Positions 2,959-8,282 of a DNA stretch of 8,282 nucleotides are shown here, piece after piece (position 1 is the stretch's first letter; every line of letters begins with the position of its first letter). The DNA is from a virus. Its lineage: Duplodnaviria > Heunggongvirae > Uroviricota > Caudoviricetes. Made by a program: the position numbers and the translations under genes. Below the pieces are notes generated by a model, which ran no database searches, was not told where the DNA came from, and was given only the letters and a program-made list of their open reading frames with translations. The DNA is taken from the IMG/VR virus record IMGVR_UViG_3300028481_000082, positions 1-8,282 of that record. One strand, given 5' to 3'.

Positions 2959-3288
2959 CTATTTAATTCTCTTTTCAATGGCTGCAATTATTGCTTTTCC
3001 TGATGTTTCAGGAGATTTTGTAGCCATATAAGACGAAAAAATCATGTCGGTCATTCTTTCATAACTTACTATTTCCCACTTAGCCAATGCATGGGACAGT
3101 TTGTAGTTGTCATCAGTTAGTGCCCTTATGGAATTTTTTAAGTGTTTATTCTCTTCAGTTAATCGCGCAATTTTTGTATCAATTTCATGTGAGCGATCTA
3201 ATTCCTTAACCTGTTTCTTGAGGGCAGCTAACCCTGCATATAGTACGCAACAGGATATCCCAAGAGCGAGTACTACTATTTCTAACAC
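2959..3288 (-). CDS. Hypothetical small membrane-anchored coiled-coil protein (109 aa); accessory/moron gene, possible superinfection-exclusion or defence-associated function
   Basis: Minus-strand ORF with GTG start at 3288 preceded by a strong AAGGAGG Shine-Dalgarno (plus-strand CCTCCTT at 3294-3300, 5-nt spacer). Stop TAG is at 2959-2961. N-terminal 22 aa are hydrophobic (LEIVVLALGISCCVLYAGLAAL), followed by a K/E-rich heptad-like segment (KQVKELDRSHEIDTKIARLTEENKHLKNSIRAL). It is AT-rich relative to the flanking structural genes and convergent with gp16. Function is inference only. Confidence 0.65.
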   Translation of the reverse strand: MLEIVVLALGISCCVLYAGLAALKKQVKELDRSHEIDTKIARLTEENKHLKNSIRALTDDNYKLSHALAKWEIVSYERMTDMIFSSYMATKSPETSGKAIIAAIEKRIK

Positions 3289-3662
3289 ACCAACCTCCTT
3301 AGTTTTTCGCAGGATACCAGATGATACTTTATTGGTGGAGTGGTGTGTGAAAACGTGTCAACGACAAACCATCCACAACTTGGACGAATGATTTAGCAAA
3401 AAGTGCTATTTTTGGTGTTTGGTGTCATAGAAAAGTGAATAGCTCACTTTTCAACATTGCATGAAACTTGCAGGAAATGTGACATTACCTTATAGGTAAC
3501 TTCGGCGAAAATGCAGTAAATGTGAAACGTAATGGTTTAAACATGTCGCTAAAGTGGTTGTAAGTTAGCCTCCGAAGGATTGCTGATAGCTTTGTTATAG
3601 TATTAAATGACATTTGACATAGTTGGATACTTAGCTGTGGCTATCAAGATGGAGGTGTGTTC
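3289..3662. promoter_or_regulatory. AT-rich divergent intergenic control region with several dyad symmetries (candidate operators and promoters for both the minus-strand 109-aa gene and the plus-strand Panacea-like operon)
   Basis: 374 bp non-coding and AT-rich. Perfect 9-bp inverted repeat GAAAAGTGA-n5-TCACTTTTC at 3430-3452. Palindrome AATGT-g-ACATT at 3476-3486. Inverted repeat TTACC-ttata-GGTAA at 3485-3499. Palindrome AAATG-a-CATTT at 3605-3615, overlapping a consensus TTGACA hexamer at 3614-3619. GGAGG Shine-Dalgarno at 3651-3655. Exact -10 elements and transcription start sites are not resolvable by eye. Confidence 0.45.
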
Positions 3663-4106
3663 ATGCTTACTTGTTTTGATGTCGCCGACTACTTCCTGTC
3701 GCGGTGTGACGAGGATAGCGGTGACACAATCTCTAATTTAAAATTACAAAAGCTTGTTTACTATGCTCAGGGTTTTTCATTGGCGTTGCTTGGCGAGCCT
3801 CTTTTTCAGAATAAGATGGAAGCTTGGATGCATGGCCCTGTTGTCCCTGAGCTTTATCGCCGTTATAAACAATATGGTAATGGCGCTATCCCTTCTCCAG
3901 AGTCTTTTGATGCTGAAAAATTCAGCGAAGAACAGTTAGAGCTATTAGAAGAAGTCTGGGATGTTTTTGGGCAATTTTCTGCCTGGAAACTGAGGAACAT
4001 GACACACGAAGAGTCACCATGGAGATCAAACTATATTGAGGGTGTTGGTGGTTCTGAAATTAGCTCTAAGGAGATGGCAGAGTACTTTGCAACTCGGATT
4101 AACTAA
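3663..4106 (+). CDS. Panacea-domain (DUF4065 / GepA / SocA-like) protein, 147 aa; putative antitoxin or defence-system component
   Basis: ATG at 3663 with GGAGG 7 nt upstream. The track start at 3657 is an in-frame GTG only 1 nt from the SD, so 3663 is preferred. The protein carries motifs I associate with the DUF4065/Panacea family: SNLKLQKLVYYAQGFSLALLGEPLF and EAWMHGPVVPELYRRYKQYG. The family call is from memory of its consensus, not a search. Confidence 0.6.
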   Translation: MLTCFDVADYFLSRCDEDSGDTISNLKLQKLVYYAQGFSLALLGEPLFQNKMEAWMHGPVVPELYRRYKQYGNGAIPSPESFDAEKFSEEQLELLEEVWDVFGQFSAWKLRNMTHEESPWRSNYIEGVGGSEISSKEMAEYFATRIN

Positions 4107-4110
4107 CGAG

Positions 4111-4530
4111 ATGGCAAGAAAATCTAAAAGGATTATCCCCCCTGCTGAATCTACAGGTAAGTTAAAGTTAGGGCCGCAGTCAGGGGGGAATTCAGATCAA
4201 AAGAAACCGAAATTTTCATTCTGTTACATCCAAAGCTCTCACTGCATAACGAAATGCCAAAAAGATGAGAAAGCTGGCTTAGCTGATAAATTATACAGAT
4301 TAAGTCAACTAACATGGGCAGAGATTAAGCAGCAAGGTAGGCATAAGCTTGGATTTGAGAAGATTGCAAGGGGTGCAATTAAAGCAGGTATCCCCAGTCA
4401 TATAACGGAAGACGTAGATCATTTCTTGGCTTTTAGATTTGATGATTTGAAAGCCATGGTTGGTTATCGTCTTGGATCGACATTTTTTGTTATATGGCTT
4501 GATAGAGAGTTCAACCTATACAAGCACTAA
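4111..4530 (+). CDS. Hypothetical basic 139-aa protein translationally coupled to the Panacea-like gene; candidate toxin or effector partner, family unknown
   Basis: ATG at 4111 lies 4 nt after the upstream stop (TAA 4104-4106) with no strong independent SD, which suggests coupling. The longer track ORF from 4036 starts inside the upstream gene in another frame and is not favoured. Basic N-terminus (MARKSKRIIPP), Cys/His cluster (FCYIQSSHCITKC), and a beta-rich C-terminus (GYRLGSTFFVIWLDREFNLYKH). Followed directly by a terminator. Confidence 0.6.
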   Translation: MARKSKRIIPPAESTGKLKLGPQSGGNSDQKKPKFSFCYIQSSHCITKCQKDEKAGLADKLYRLSQLTWAEIKQQGRHKLGFEKIARGAIKAGIPSHITEDVDHFLAFRFDDLKAMVGYRLGSTFFVIWLDREFNLYKH

Positions 4531-6017: not shown

Positions 6018-6036
6018 CAGATAACCAACGCAACGA

Positions 6037-6059
6037 CCCAGCTTCGGCTGGGTTTTTTT
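6037..6059 (+). terminator. Rho-independent terminator after ant
   Basis: Stem CCCAGC (6037-6042), loop TTCG, stem GCTGGG (6047-6052), followed by seven T (6053-6059). Confidence 0.8.
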
Positions 6060-6117
6060 ATGCCCAAAATTCACCGTAGCCATGCTGCGGCGATTCCTTG
6101 TATCTGGAGCAAATTAA

Positions 6118-8103
6118 ATGACAGATTCAATAAATGCCAATGTTGTAGTAAGTATGCCATCGCAACTCTTCACTATGGCTCGTTCTTTTAAAGCAGTTGC
6201 CAATGGCAAAATTTATATCGGTAAAATTGACACTGACCCGGTAAATCCTGAAAACCAGATTCAGGTTTATGTAGAAAACGAAGATGGTTCTCATGTTCCT
6301 GTTTCGCAACCAATAATCATTAACGCTGCTGGTTACCCTGTATATAACGGACAGATTGCCAAATTCGTAACTGTGCAAGGCCATTCTATGGCTGTATATG
6401 ATGCATATGGCGTACAGCAATTTTACTATCCAAACGTATTGAAGTATGACCCTGATCAGTTAAGGCAGGAGCTTGAAGGAGATAAAGGTTTTTTAATCCC
6501 TGGTGGTCAGCAGGAAAGATTTTATGACCTACGCGCATTTGTTGAGCCAGGAGACCCAGCAGCTCCAGACTACACGCAGGCTTTCAAACGCGCCATCGCC
6601 TCTGGTAACGGACGAGTTTTTGTCAACGTTCCAGTGGAATTTACAGAAGATCTGACTATCCCGGCGAAGTTCCGCGTAGATATTGGTGAATGTGGTTATC
6701 TGTACACTAACTCAGCAAAAGTACGCATTGAAGGATTTATCAATACTATCGGGGGTAATGATCCGTATCGCGGTTACATCCATCCATTTGGCGTTGACTC
6801 GTCAACAGTGGCGGGTATTTACACGATGCCTGTAACACTCATGGTTCCGGAAGATTACCGGACCATTCAGGAAGCAATTGACGATATCCCAAATAATTAT
6901 TGGCAGAGAATTATTATCTCAATTGCACCAGGAACTTATGATGAAGACATAGTAATCAGAAGCAAGAGGGGGTGCACACCTCTATTCCCACCTAGCGCAT
7001 CGCAACAAGCAAACATTGTTATAGTAAGTAGAACTACCGACAGAACAACAGTTAATGTTAGGTCAGCCCAGGTATTTTCATGCGGAGGCACACCATACAG
7101 CCCAGAGTTGCACGCTTTAAACTTTACAAATAGAACACACAGTGATGAAAATGCTTCAGTTGAATTTTATGGATGCACATCTGGCGCTGTTAATGATTGT
7201 TCATTCAATGGGGTAGGAGTTGATAAGTGTATTGAGGCATATAATAGTACAATATCAGTTGAATCATGCGATTTCGGTAACGAAATTAATGATAAAGGGA
7301 TGGTTGTAAAGCATGGAGGAGTATTAAGCTCAAACTCAACAAGAATAGGACAGGCGCTAAAGCCAATGTCTGGCACACTAAAAAGTTGGGTTGCTGTTTC
7401 GATAGGCGGTATCATTATCGGTAATGATTTTGGTATGTGCATTGGTAAAGTTGCGCAAAGTAGGGTTGATGGAGTACAGGTAGGGCTTATAACTGAAACA
7501 GCTACAAAATCAATTAATGGAGTAACATCTTCATTTACGCTTGCGACAACAAGGCACCATACTCAATTTCAAGACTATGATAAATTTACCAATAAAGTAA
7601 CCGGCTCAGGTTCAGGGTTGGAATATTATGCAGAAGGTGGATTAGTTGTAAGAGCGGGGACTGTTGGCGGTACGGCACTTGTAAGATATAAAAGAGAGCG
7701 ACGGCTTGTATTAAATTATGAAACATTTAACTATCTTGGTTTTGCTGTTGCTTATGGAATTACATCTGGAGTTAATTCACTAAATGGTTTTATAGTTTGT
7801 GGCTCCGTGGAATCAGGAAATTACTTTGGAATAAGGTATATAGGAAATGAAGCAAAAGGTATAATATGTAAGGATGGAGTGCAGTCAACGACTACATTAC
7901 TTAACAGCACAAAAACATATGGGACATGGACGTGCAAATATGTAGGAAAGGGTGACGGGCAGTTAATTATTATGCACAATGATACATATGCTGGTCATAT
8001 AAATGGAGTTAAGTTATCATCATATGATGGAACATATTTCGAGGCCTACATAACAGACGATAGAATACAGCTATTCGAAATGGATTTTATTGCAAGCGCT
8101 TAA
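6118..8103 (+). CDS. Tailspike protein (P22 gene 9 homologue), 661 aa; conserved head-binding N-terminal domain plus a divergent beta-helix receptor-binding domain
   Basis: ATG at 6118 with GGAG at 6105-6108. The N-terminal ~115 aa ([60 protein letters not shown]...[15 protein letters not shown]...NVLKYDPDQ) is clearly homologous to the P22 tailspike head-binding domain and, by memory, closer to the Sf6/HK620 type. The remainder does not resemble the P22 endorhamnosidase domain. GC drops from roughly 47-60% to roughly 30-38% from about 6950 onward. Confidence 0.93.
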
Positions 8104-8141
8104 ATCAATTGTCTGGTTAATTATAAATTGTTAAATGAAAA

Positions 8142-8164
8142 GAAGGTGGCGTTACACCACCTTC
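8142..8164 (-). terminator. Hairpin likely acting as a rho-independent terminator for a convergent minus-strand transcript downstream of the tailspike gene
   Basis: Stem GAAGGTGG (8142-8149), loop CGTTACA, stem CCACCTTC (8157-8164). On the minus strand it is followed by UUUUCAUUU. On the plus strand it is not followed by a U-run, so it is a weak terminator for the tailspike gene. Confidence 0.45.
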
Positions 8165-8282
8165 CCATCAAGCCAGTCCGCCCACCACTGCATCATTTCT
8201 CTGCGCTTATCGAGATACTGAGCATGGTTGTAAATTCAGCAAACGACGTAATGTGTTTGACAAAAAATTAGCGCAAGAAGAC

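Follow-up and report, generated by a model that had tools for sequence, protein, structure and literature searches.

Results

The window, by which we mean the whole stretch of 8,282 nucleotides of viral DNA analyzed here, carries a tailspike gene, before which P22_Tail-4, gp10, gp26-like, gp7, Inj_translocase, gp16, SocA (SocA_Panacea), Mnt, Arc, and Ant follow one another in this order. As in the initial annotation, the tailspike gene is a single open reading frame on the plus strand at positions 6118 to 8103, encoding 661 amino acids (aa) and closed by a TAA stop codon. It is the last gene of the late region, behind those for the ejection proteins and the ant/immI moron, as are the tailspike genes of P22, Sf6, and HK620, and megablast aligned the window with P22-like phages. 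An intrinsic-terminator-like hairpin with a T-run (positions 6035 to 6054, plus strand; 8-bp stem with five GC pairs, TTTTTTTAT tail) lies 3' of the antirepressor gene and upstream of the tailspike gene, and a second terminator-like hairpin lies downstream of it on the minus strand (positions 8140 to 8166; 12-bp stem with six GC pairs, TTCATTT tail). Positions 8166 to 8282 form the prophage right end, or att region. This remnant shows homology to the 3'-terminal part of a phage integrase gene and is 91 to 99% identical to two E. coli prophages, L001 (10337 to 10449) and L007 (7150 to 7221, inside the integrase coding sequence). The host genes ybhB-bioA lie just past the end of the window, with ybhB about 270 nt beyond it in L003.

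The exact 661-aa protein is present on 22 independent contigs, which come from four independent sources (ENA, Logan runs, JGI) and agree in the genes flanking it; the cluster of 99%-identical proteins has 45 member sequences, NCBI E. coli genomes among them. The complete gene was found in none of 5,426 complete E. coli genomes, only one of which (VTB96777v) matches past gene nucleotide ~373. The window itself is identical to metagenome-assembled contigs (100% identity to two and 99.99% to two more), and P22-like head-binding-domain genes occupy up to three places per E. coli genome, with many genomes carrying more than one. Both observations would fit an assembly chimera of the tailspike genes of two co-resident prophages as the origin of the mosaic described below, but the recurrence of the same protein between the same flanks in independent sources, and in a cluster that includes NCBI genomes, leaves us giving this explanation next to no credence.

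Blocks and junctions of the tailspike gene

It is sequence comparison, and not GC content, that identifies the gene as a mosaic, in which at least four blocks have different histories: A (aa 1 to 115), B (aa 121 to 247), C (aa 248 to 298), and D (aa 299 to 661), all on the plus strand. Block A (positions 6118 to 6462) is the P22-type head-binding, or anchor, domain that had been recognized earlier in the first ~115 aa as being of the P22/Sf6/HK620 type. The Pfam family PF09008 (Head_binding) matches aa 4 to 114 with an E value of 3.8e-65 and a score of 217.6 bits (cutoff, 24), and in the PDB, aa 1 to 119 are nearly identical to the Sf6 tailspike (7sg7) and align well with P22 chains. At the nucleotide level, the block is ~82 to 92% identical to HK620, Sf6, CUS-3, and epsilon34, an identity that ends at gene nucleotide ~342 to 373.

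The first junction falls at the linker LRQEL(E) between the anchor and the receptor-binding part (positions 6463 to 6477). Homology to the tailspikes with this head-binding domain stops at position ~6468 to 6490, and homology to the tailspike of the Kuttervirus CBA6 begins exactly at codon 121 (position 6478). In protein sequence, the linker is similar to (D)ASLRxEL, with which Kuttervirus anchors end. The anchor domain of Ackermannviridae tailspikes (TSP1 to TSP4), PF18668 (Tail_spike_N), is absent from the window protein and present in three relatives (P0018, P0004, and P0011) with which it has only the receptor-binding part in common.

Block B (positions 6478 to 6858) is an N-terminal cap subdomain, the GC-richest block of the gene (47%), and is found on three anchor types. 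It is 91.9% identical at the nucleotide level to the CBA6 tailspike (dS of 0.32) and 87.1% identical to P0002, a Citrobacter braakii prophage protein (dS of 0.51). Block C (positions 6859 to 7011) comprises the cap helix, the first pectinesterase-like beta-helix rung, and a conserved loop, and its nucleotide identity is 99.3 to 100% to L001 and L007 and 60 to 69% to CBA6 and P0002. The boundary between B and C (position ~6860, aa ~248) is graded over ~20 codons rather than sharp, with dS relative to CBA6 and P0002 (0.32 to 0.51 before it) rising across it to 1.7 or saturation. Block D (positions 7012 to 8100) holds the remaining beta-helix rungs and the C-terminal ConA-like jelly roll and is presumed to be the part that determines specificity.

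A sharp junction separates blocks C and D. The tailspike genes of L001 and L007 share with the window a block of ~99 to 100% nucleotide identity at positions 6103 to 7012 on the plus strand (6103 being the start of the BLAST match), upstream of which their DNA is unrelated to that of the window. Over gene nucleotides 19 to 895 there are 2 mismatches in 877 positions (99.7 to 100% identity), while from gene nucleotide 896 (position 7013) onwards identity is ~53% (~47% mismatches), or 45% at the amino acid level, and dS, 0 to 0.03 before 7012/7013 (codon 299), is saturated after it. The exchanged cassette, relative to these two prophages, spans positions 7013 to 8165 on the plus strand and extends from block D through the stop codon into 62 nt of 3' flanking sequence; the second hairpin lies at its right edge, and homology resumes at position 8166. 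The corresponding cassette in L001 and L007 also carries an EpsG-family gene downstream of the tailspike gene.

The gene thus combines an abrupt step in identity and dS with discordant nearest relatives, the pattern of an intragenic recombinant, the nearest relatives being CBA6 and P0002 for block B, L001 and L007 for blocks A to C, and P0002 for block D. The earlier proposal of a mosaic with at least two recombination junctions is borne out, and these now map to ~6468 to 6490, ~6860, and exactly 7012/7013. A break had also been expected ~160 aa beyond the head-binding domain; inner junctions do exist, but they lie ~130 and ~185 aa beyond it. We consider it extremely unlikely that there was no recombination inside the receptor-binding part and that diversifying selection on the distal part and purifying selection on the proximal part produced the contrast. 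One would expect diversifying selection to act on a distal part that contacts the receptor, and the proximal blocks are highly conserved in protein across the family, but selection acts on amino acids, and it is dS that leaps to saturation over a single codon in the comparison with L001 and L007 and that also rises across the boundary between B and C relative to CBA6 and P0002. Nor would selection explain that the identical block is flanked by unrelated DNA on the left and by different gene content on the right.

GC content and the search for a donor

GC content varies along the gene, being 38.8% (GC3 of 0.31) for gene nucleotides 1 to 345, 46.2% (0.40) for nucleotides 346 to 795, and 38.6% (0.27) for nucleotides 824 to 1986, with 43.7% for the whole window; a uniform GC content is thus not what the gene has. 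A GC-normal middle segment followed by a drop had been described initially, and the direction of this change is real, but its size was overstated; GC is as low in the head-binding domain as it is distally, so that the pattern is a mildly GC-richer middle island rather than a foreign tail on an otherwise normal gene. A two-break segmentation corresponding to such an island was not significant (p of ~0.12). Two further details did not hold. Distal GC had been put at roughly 30 to 38%, whereas the mean is 38.4 to 38.6% and 200-nt windows range from 32.5 to 44.5%, with only 43% of them within 30 to 38%. The fall had been described as abrupt and placed at ~6940, but GC is still 43.5 to 44% up to ~7100, and the best single change-point lies after codon 333 (position ~7117; 45.9% to 37.3%). 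This change-point is ~100 nt from the 7013 junction and ~250 nt from the boundary between B and C and coincides with no mapped junction. By permutation, its p value is 0.014 within the receptor-binding part and 0.11 (all GC) or 0.024 (GC3) for the whole gene.

The initial annotation had called the distal module compositionally foreign and imported from a low-GC source, which we considered as a recent import from a low-GC organism or phage with the GC drop as the import boundary. The lower GC and GC3 of the distal part compared to the middle block, the significance of the change-point within the receptor-binding part, and the lack of a close relative of block D outside its own lineage all speak for such an import. 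However, the same gradient (46 to 47% in block B and 38 to 42% in block D) is seen in all four relatives for which DNA was compared, on any platform and with any distal variant; the versions from the Kuttervirus and from Citrobacter are among them, as is the alternative distal variant. The shift is therefore neither located at a junction nor specific to the recipient allele, the platform-native head-binding domain is equally GC-poor, and the significance over the whole gene is weak. Moreover, the full-length relatives with a named source, about half of those listed, are from Escherichia, from Citrobacter, or from CBA6, which was propagated on E. coli, and the homologues in Vibrio phages and a Halorubrum virus are only ~30% identical. 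On balance, an import from a low-GC source seems improbable; with the gradient present in all relatives, the anchor GC-poor, and the change-point off the junctions, the low GC of block D is a property of the whole family and identifies no donor.

Direct searches for a donor of block D gave a similar picture. Apart from CBA6 at 61% and these distant Vibrio and Halorubrum viruses, tblastn against 50,697 phage records returned nothing, and in a search of 5.8 billion proteins, no match outside the cluster of the gene itself exceeded 80%. Scans of IMG/VR found no donor, and those of GTDB species representatives gave one partial locus only, in a probably mis-binned Advenella metagenome-assembled genome.

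Predicted fold and relationship to pectin methylesterases

Beyond aa ~128, the protein has no sequence similarity to any solved tailspike in the PDB, and no characterized tailspike matches it there, so that it is not a near-identical, full-length copy of any one of them. The AF2 model of the receptor-binding part, which was predicted as a monomer from only 24 aligned sequences (a shallow alignment) and has linkers of low confidence, shows the cap subdomain, a short right-handed parallel beta-helix as expected of a P22-like tailspike (~200 aa, to aa ~451), and a ConA-like jelly roll at aa ~477 to 660 (~185 aa). The best Foldseek match in the PDB, and the nearest solved architecture, is CBA120 TSP2 (E value of 8e-9); with a TM-score of only ~0.3, the receptor-binding fold is not the same in detail.

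The first rungs of the beta-helix resemble CE8 pectin methylesterases in sequence to a degree that suggests homology. PF01095 matches aa 246 to 319 with scores of 22.4 bits (whole protein) and 24.3 bits (aa 245 to 481) that are below the cutoff of 27, as are those of all relatives, and a profile match to carrot pectin methylesterase (1gq8) covers residues 16 to 103 of that enzyme (E value of 9e-8), whose catalytic positions are Q113, Q135-D136, D157, and R225. The matches cover only profile positions 11 to 86 of 298, with no alignable motif for the CE8 catalytic Gln/Asp/Asp/Arg, and NCBIfam gave only a 19-bit match to E. coli YbhC. Membership in CE8 was rejected because PF01095 scores under its gathering cutoff and the alignment stops before the catalytic residues, and other beta-helix enzymes, e.g., PL6 lyases, give structural scores equal to or better than those of CE8. 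Relatives at ~25 to 37% identity all have E276 and K398, and at least 90% of the sequences have Y375.

The receptor-binding part (aa ~121 to 661) belongs to a rare family of receptor-binding modules without a characterized member, and the family is found on several anchors: PF09008 (P22 type), PF18668 (Kuttervirus tailspikes), and at least one other prophage anchor with neither domain, with more distant relatives having T7-tail and tail-collar N termini. We considered block B as a separately grafted domain and rejected this, since a PF12708-like cap, ~95 aa before the CE8-like start, is retained by relatives that have other anchors and ~30% identity, which makes block B an integral part of the family architecture.

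Discussion

Very probably, the window carries the intact tailspike gene of a P22-like (Lederbergvirus-type) E. coli prophage adjoining ybhB-bioA, a mosaic built within one family of receptor-binding modules. The present allele arose by homologous recombination between family members riding on different phage platforms, with the latest exchange replacing positions 7013 to 8165 by a left crossover just after the conserved loop within the first beta-helix turn and a right crossover in the att/integrase remnant. Since the best relative of block D is only 80% identical in amino acids and 69% in nucleotides, the exchange may have gone in either direction, and the recombinant could be of the window type or of the P0014 type.

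This is ordinary modular exchange, the usual route of receptor change in P22-like phages, in which aa 1 to 115 are conserved and the C-terminal parts are swapped (PMC2629481), and the window gene follows the same pattern. It shares the plan of an anchor and a beta-helix with the P22, Sf6, and HK620 tailspikes and differs from them in its short beta-helix, the CE8-like first rungs, and the ConA-like C terminus. The P0014/VTB96777v type (WP_446497352-like) is also P22-like and has blocks A to C at 99.7 to 100% nucleotide identity, but it carries another block D allele, followed by the EpsG-family gene that is absent from the window, and upstream it either lacks the ant/immI moron or has a different one; L001 is inserted at ybhB-bioA, like the window, and L007 in a different chromosomal context. 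The 921-aa CBA6 tailspike (P0018) is homologous over aa 115 to 661 of the window protein (61% amino acid identity, with block B at 92% in nucleotides), but it has PF18668 and an XD-type N terminus in place of PF09008, and the distal parts are only ~52% identical in nucleotides. Phage genera have been reported to exchange receptor-binding domains, and so, specifically, have podoviruses and myoviruses (PMC10408124, PMC8432352), and the module sharing of P22 and Det7 (PMC8432352) is of the same kind as that of the window and CBA6.

The head-binding domain would anchor the trimer to the virion, and the exchange of the distal part would then change the surface polysaccharide, most likely an O-antigen, to which the phage binds and which it probably cleaves or modifies. 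Polysaccharide-modification genes beside the tailspike genes of relatives, EpsG in L001 and L007 and Acyl_transf_3 with SGNH in L008, lend circumstantial support to a putative homotrimer that destroys an O-antigen receptor by endoglycosidase or similar activity. The host O-antigen cluster lies outside the contigs examined. The receptor of the module is not given in PMC3184105, which mentions CBA6 in passing, or in PMC10408124 and PMC8432352, neither of which includes CBA6.

A more far-reaching pair of linked readings, a new enzymatic tailspike class together with block B as a cross-platform recombination handle, we regard as doubtful. According to the first, the module may be a short CE8-derived beta-helix, with the catalytic set of the pectinesterases lost, conserved residues of its own, and a ConA-like lectin cap, and it could act as an esterase or lyase on the O-antigen instead of the usual endoglycosidase. 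According to the second, the ~380-nt block B may let anchors and distal specificity parts swap independently between temperate and lytic phages; block B is 87 to 92% identical across a temperate Lederbergvirus-type prophage, a virulent Kuttervirus, and a third prophage type. Pas et al. (2023) described conserved exchange motifs in lytic genera and not in Lederberg- or Uetakevirus prophages.

The case does not change the understanding of how tailspike genes evolve, but it does show how little a GC dip says by itself about the site or source of module acquisition. The O-antigen or capsule type that a phage can attack depends on the receptor-binding part of its tailspike, and each well-delimited new module therefore helps in predicting host range and engineering chimeric spikes. 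Here, a natural crossover inside the beta-helix has been resolved to a single codon, just after a conserved loop, and chimeric spikes could in practice be grafted at this crossover (codon 299) and at the 380-nt block that a temperate podovirus has in common with a virulent myovirus.

Results and discussion

The window represents the right-hand end of a P22-like prophage. Ahead of the tailspike ORF (6118-8103, plus strand, 661 aa) it carries genes for an Inj_translocase (gp20-like) and a gp16-like protein, a minus-strand ORF of 109 aa, the gene of a SocA/Panacea-domain protein with a 164-aa ORF that overlaps it, and the genes for Mnt, Arc and the Ant antirepressor. One contig of an ENA metagenome assembly and one JGI contig are 100% identical to the window, two Logan assemblies are 99.99% identical, and 22 contigs bear the exact 661-aa protein. 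A cluster of 45 members at 99% identity to the protein (P0001) carries the annotation "phage tailspike protein [Escherichia coli]," and on longer contigs the prophage ends ~270 nt past the window, adjoining E. coli ybhB-bioA-bioBFCD-uvrB. The segment 8140-8282 holds a terminator hairpin on the minus strand (8166-8140) and, beyond it, ~117 nt with homology to a phage integrase gene at its 3' end; as no integrase ORF occurs in this stretch, it is read as an att-site or integrase remnant marking the border of prophage and host DNA next to ybhB.

The SocA/Panacea-domain gene (3657-4106, plus strand; PF13274, E = 2e-24) overlaps the 164-aa ORF (4036-4530, plus strand), which has no match in Pfam or NCBIfam and a weak PADLOC match to NsnC (E = 1e-5); the pair may form a Panacea-type toxin-antitoxin or defence module within the ant/immI moron of the prophage. 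The 109-aa ORF (2959-3288, minus strand) sits between the gp16-like and SocA genes, where GC is locally low (36.7%); it was called as a gene in all four contigs examined and has no family match beyond a marginal one to LmuB (E = 1.4e-3).

The initial annotation described the tailspike as a conserved P22/Sf6-type head-binding domain fused to a receptor-binding module from a low-GC source, with at least two junctions. The head-binding domain is confirmed by a PF09008 match over aa 4-114 (E = 3.8e-65), a near-identical alignment of aa 1-119 to the Sf6 tailspike and a good alignment to P22 chains. From gene nt 1 to ~342-373, where similarity ends, the DNA is 82-92% identical to that of HK620, Sf6, CUS-3, epsilon34 and the tailspike genes carried by 1,126 of the 5,426 complete E. 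coli genomes. A micro-patch at gene nt 9-18 (6126-6135), unlike otherwise identical relatives and with a one-codon length difference (N-terminus MTDSINANV versus MTDITANV in P0001 and the E. coli prophages L001 and L007), suggests a further small exchange or indel.

A codon-by-codon alignment with four relatives divided the gene into blocks. Two of these are E. coli prophage tailspikes, L001 from strain VTB96777v and L007, whose protein cluster P0014 has 54 members. Only 2 positions differ between the window and L001/L007 over gene nt 19-895, but from gene nt 896 (codon 299, window 7013) the nucleotide identity is only ~53%, with dS rising from 0-0.03 to saturation within one codon. The left limit of the common block is at 6103, 5' of which the DNA is unrelated because L001 does not have the ant/immI moron and the surroundings of L007 are different, and homology restarts at 8166, within the integrase remnant of the att region. 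The breaks at 7013 and 8166 thus define an exchanged cassette, 7013-8165. The equivalent cassette in L001/L007 also holds a gene for an EpsG-family (Wzy-like) membrane protein on the opposite strand, just 3' of the tailspike genes (L001 9029-10147 and L007 5842-6960, minus strand). This gene is missing from the window prophage and accompanies the alternative block D allele; it is a candidate lysogenic-conversion gene exchanged along with receptor specificity.

The other two relatives, the tailspike of Kuttervirus CBA6 (P0018, 921 aa) and a Citrobacter braakii prophage protein (P0002, 759 aa), are anchored differently, by domains with no relationship to the P22 head-binding domain: that of CBA6 is PF18668, and that of P0002 has no Pfam match. 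The Citrobacter prophage platform also differs from that of the window: it encodes a large protein with an SLT domain and lacks the P22 head-binding domain. Homology to CBA6 starts precisely at codon 121 (window 6478), and to codon ~247 the nucleotide identity is 91.9% (dS 0.32) for CBA6 and 87.1% (dS 0.51) for P0002; past this point it is 60-69%, with dS 1.7 or saturated. The nearest relative of the last block is P0002 (80% aa and 69% nt identity), while the L001/L007 prophages, alike in the preceding blocks, are more remote there. Together, these breaks and affinities split the gene into four blocks whose histories disagree: A (aa 1-115), B (aa 121-247), C (aa 248-298) and D (aa 299-661). 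Fast evolution of the tip is ruled out by the steps in synonymous divergence, and the steps at codons ~247 and 299 bear out a mosaic gene with multiple junctions.

The proposed low-GC donor was not supported. GC does fall toward the 3' end, from 46.2% (GC3 0.40) in the middle region (gene nt 346-795) to 38.6% (GC3 0.27) in the distal region (gene nt 824-1986), against 43.7% for the whole window, but the drop is smaller than was claimed (32.5-44.5% in distal 200-nt windows). A codon-permutation change-point test placed the best single break after codon 333 (window ~7117), with p = 0.014 within the receptor-binding part and, over the whole gene, p = 0.11 for all GC and p = 0.024 for GC3; as GC also stays near 44% as far as ~7100, the compositional signal is modest and not abrupt. 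The head-binding domain (gene nt 1-345) has 38.8% GC (GC3 0.31), so the "native" domain is as GC-poor as the "foreign" tail. Block B has 46-47% GC and block D 38-42% in the window, both E. coli relatives, the Citrobacter gene and the Kuttervirus gene alike, even though both E. coli relatives carry a different D allele. Windowed GC along block D correlates among alleles ~53-69% identical in nucleotides (r = 0.54-0.81), and weakly with the CBA6 allele (~52% identity; r = 0.27). The change-point also coincides with neither mapped junction (6860 and 7013). The B-to-D gradient is a property of the tailspike family and not a donor signature.

In an AF2 model covering aa 111-661, built from 24 aligned sequences (pLDDT 82, pTM 0.75), a helical linker leads into a small cap subdomain of alpha/beta type (aa ~153-243, block B). 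Next come a cap helix and a short, right-handed beta-helix (aa ~250-451), then a linker of low confidence and a beta-sandwich (aa ~477-660). The best Foldseek match in the PDB was CBA120 TSP2 (E = 8e-9, TM ~0.3), and the best viral models were two unnamed BFVD entries (UniProt A0A2I7RH99 and A0A2I7S3P6; 18-22% identity). Beyond the anchor, the only solved proteins with similar sequence are pectin methylesterases, and the resemblance is confined to their first ~90 residues: PF01095 reaches 22-24 bits where the cutoff is 27, and a broader family profile matches residues 16-103 of carrot pectin methylesterase 1gq8 (E = 9e-8). Since these alignments end before the CE8 catalytic residues, we do not file the protein under CE8. 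On the model, the first junction falls in the linker (LRQEL) that joins the anchor to the receptor-binding part, and the B|C boundary separates the cap subdomain from the cap helix of the beta-helix. The sharp C|D junction comes past the first rung, right behind [15 protein letters not shown], a conserved loop; a patch this conserved is where one would expect diverged homologues to resolve a crossover.

The receptor-binding family is rare. Among 1.84 billion representative proteins, 94 reached E <= 1e-3, and full-length relatives form only four 50%-identity clusters. In a set of 50,697 phage records, CBA6 is the sole one to match almost all of the receptor-binding part; eight others give weak, partial matches (~28-34% identity). 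Blocks B-C occur in 1 of 5,426 complete E. coli genomes. Distant members with T7-type and tail-collar anchors retain a PF12708-like cap ~95 aa before the CE8-like start, so block B is integral to the family architecture. The sole match in species-representative genomes (L011 5001-5825; 64% identity over aa 8-295) sits at the end of a 6.9-kb contig in a MAG labelled Advenella kashmirensis; it is probably a piece of an enterobacterial phage that was mis-binned.

In the textbook picture, P22-like tailspikes combine a conserved aa 1-115 with unrelated C-terminal parts (PMC2629481); receptor-binding modules are exchanged between genera, including Kutter- and Lederbergviruses (PMC10408124), and P22/Det7 is a specific podovirus-myovirus case (cited in PMC8432352). 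Pas et al. found conserved exchange motifs in lytic genera and not in Lederberg- or Uetakevirus prophages. The tailspike studied here differs from these known exchanges solely in degree: its module is rare and uncharacterised, one crossover is within the beta-helix, and a near-identical 380-nt block occurs both in a temperate prophage and in a virulent Kuttervirus. The mosaic structure of the initial annotation, with its multiple junctions, is supported, unlike its low-GC foreign source.

An O-antigen target is suggested only circumstantially, by the polysaccharide-modification genes directly 3' of the relatives' tailspikes, namely, EpsG in L001/L007 and, straight after the Citrobacter tailspike, an O-acetyltransferase-like gene (Acyl_transf_3+SGNH, OafB-like; L008 10311-12224, minus strand). 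This is where lysogenic-conversion genes of such phages usually lie (PMC10408124, discussion). No polysaccharide-modification gene of this type is present in the window prophage.

In conclusion, the comparisons show repeated homologous exchange among family members on different phage platforms, with 7013-8165 replaced last. The spike trimer would sit on a P22-type tail via its head-binding domain, with the beta-helix and lectin-like domains predicted to bind surface polysaccharide and process it, perhaps as a hydrolase, lyase or esterase, and the exchange of block D would retarget the phage.
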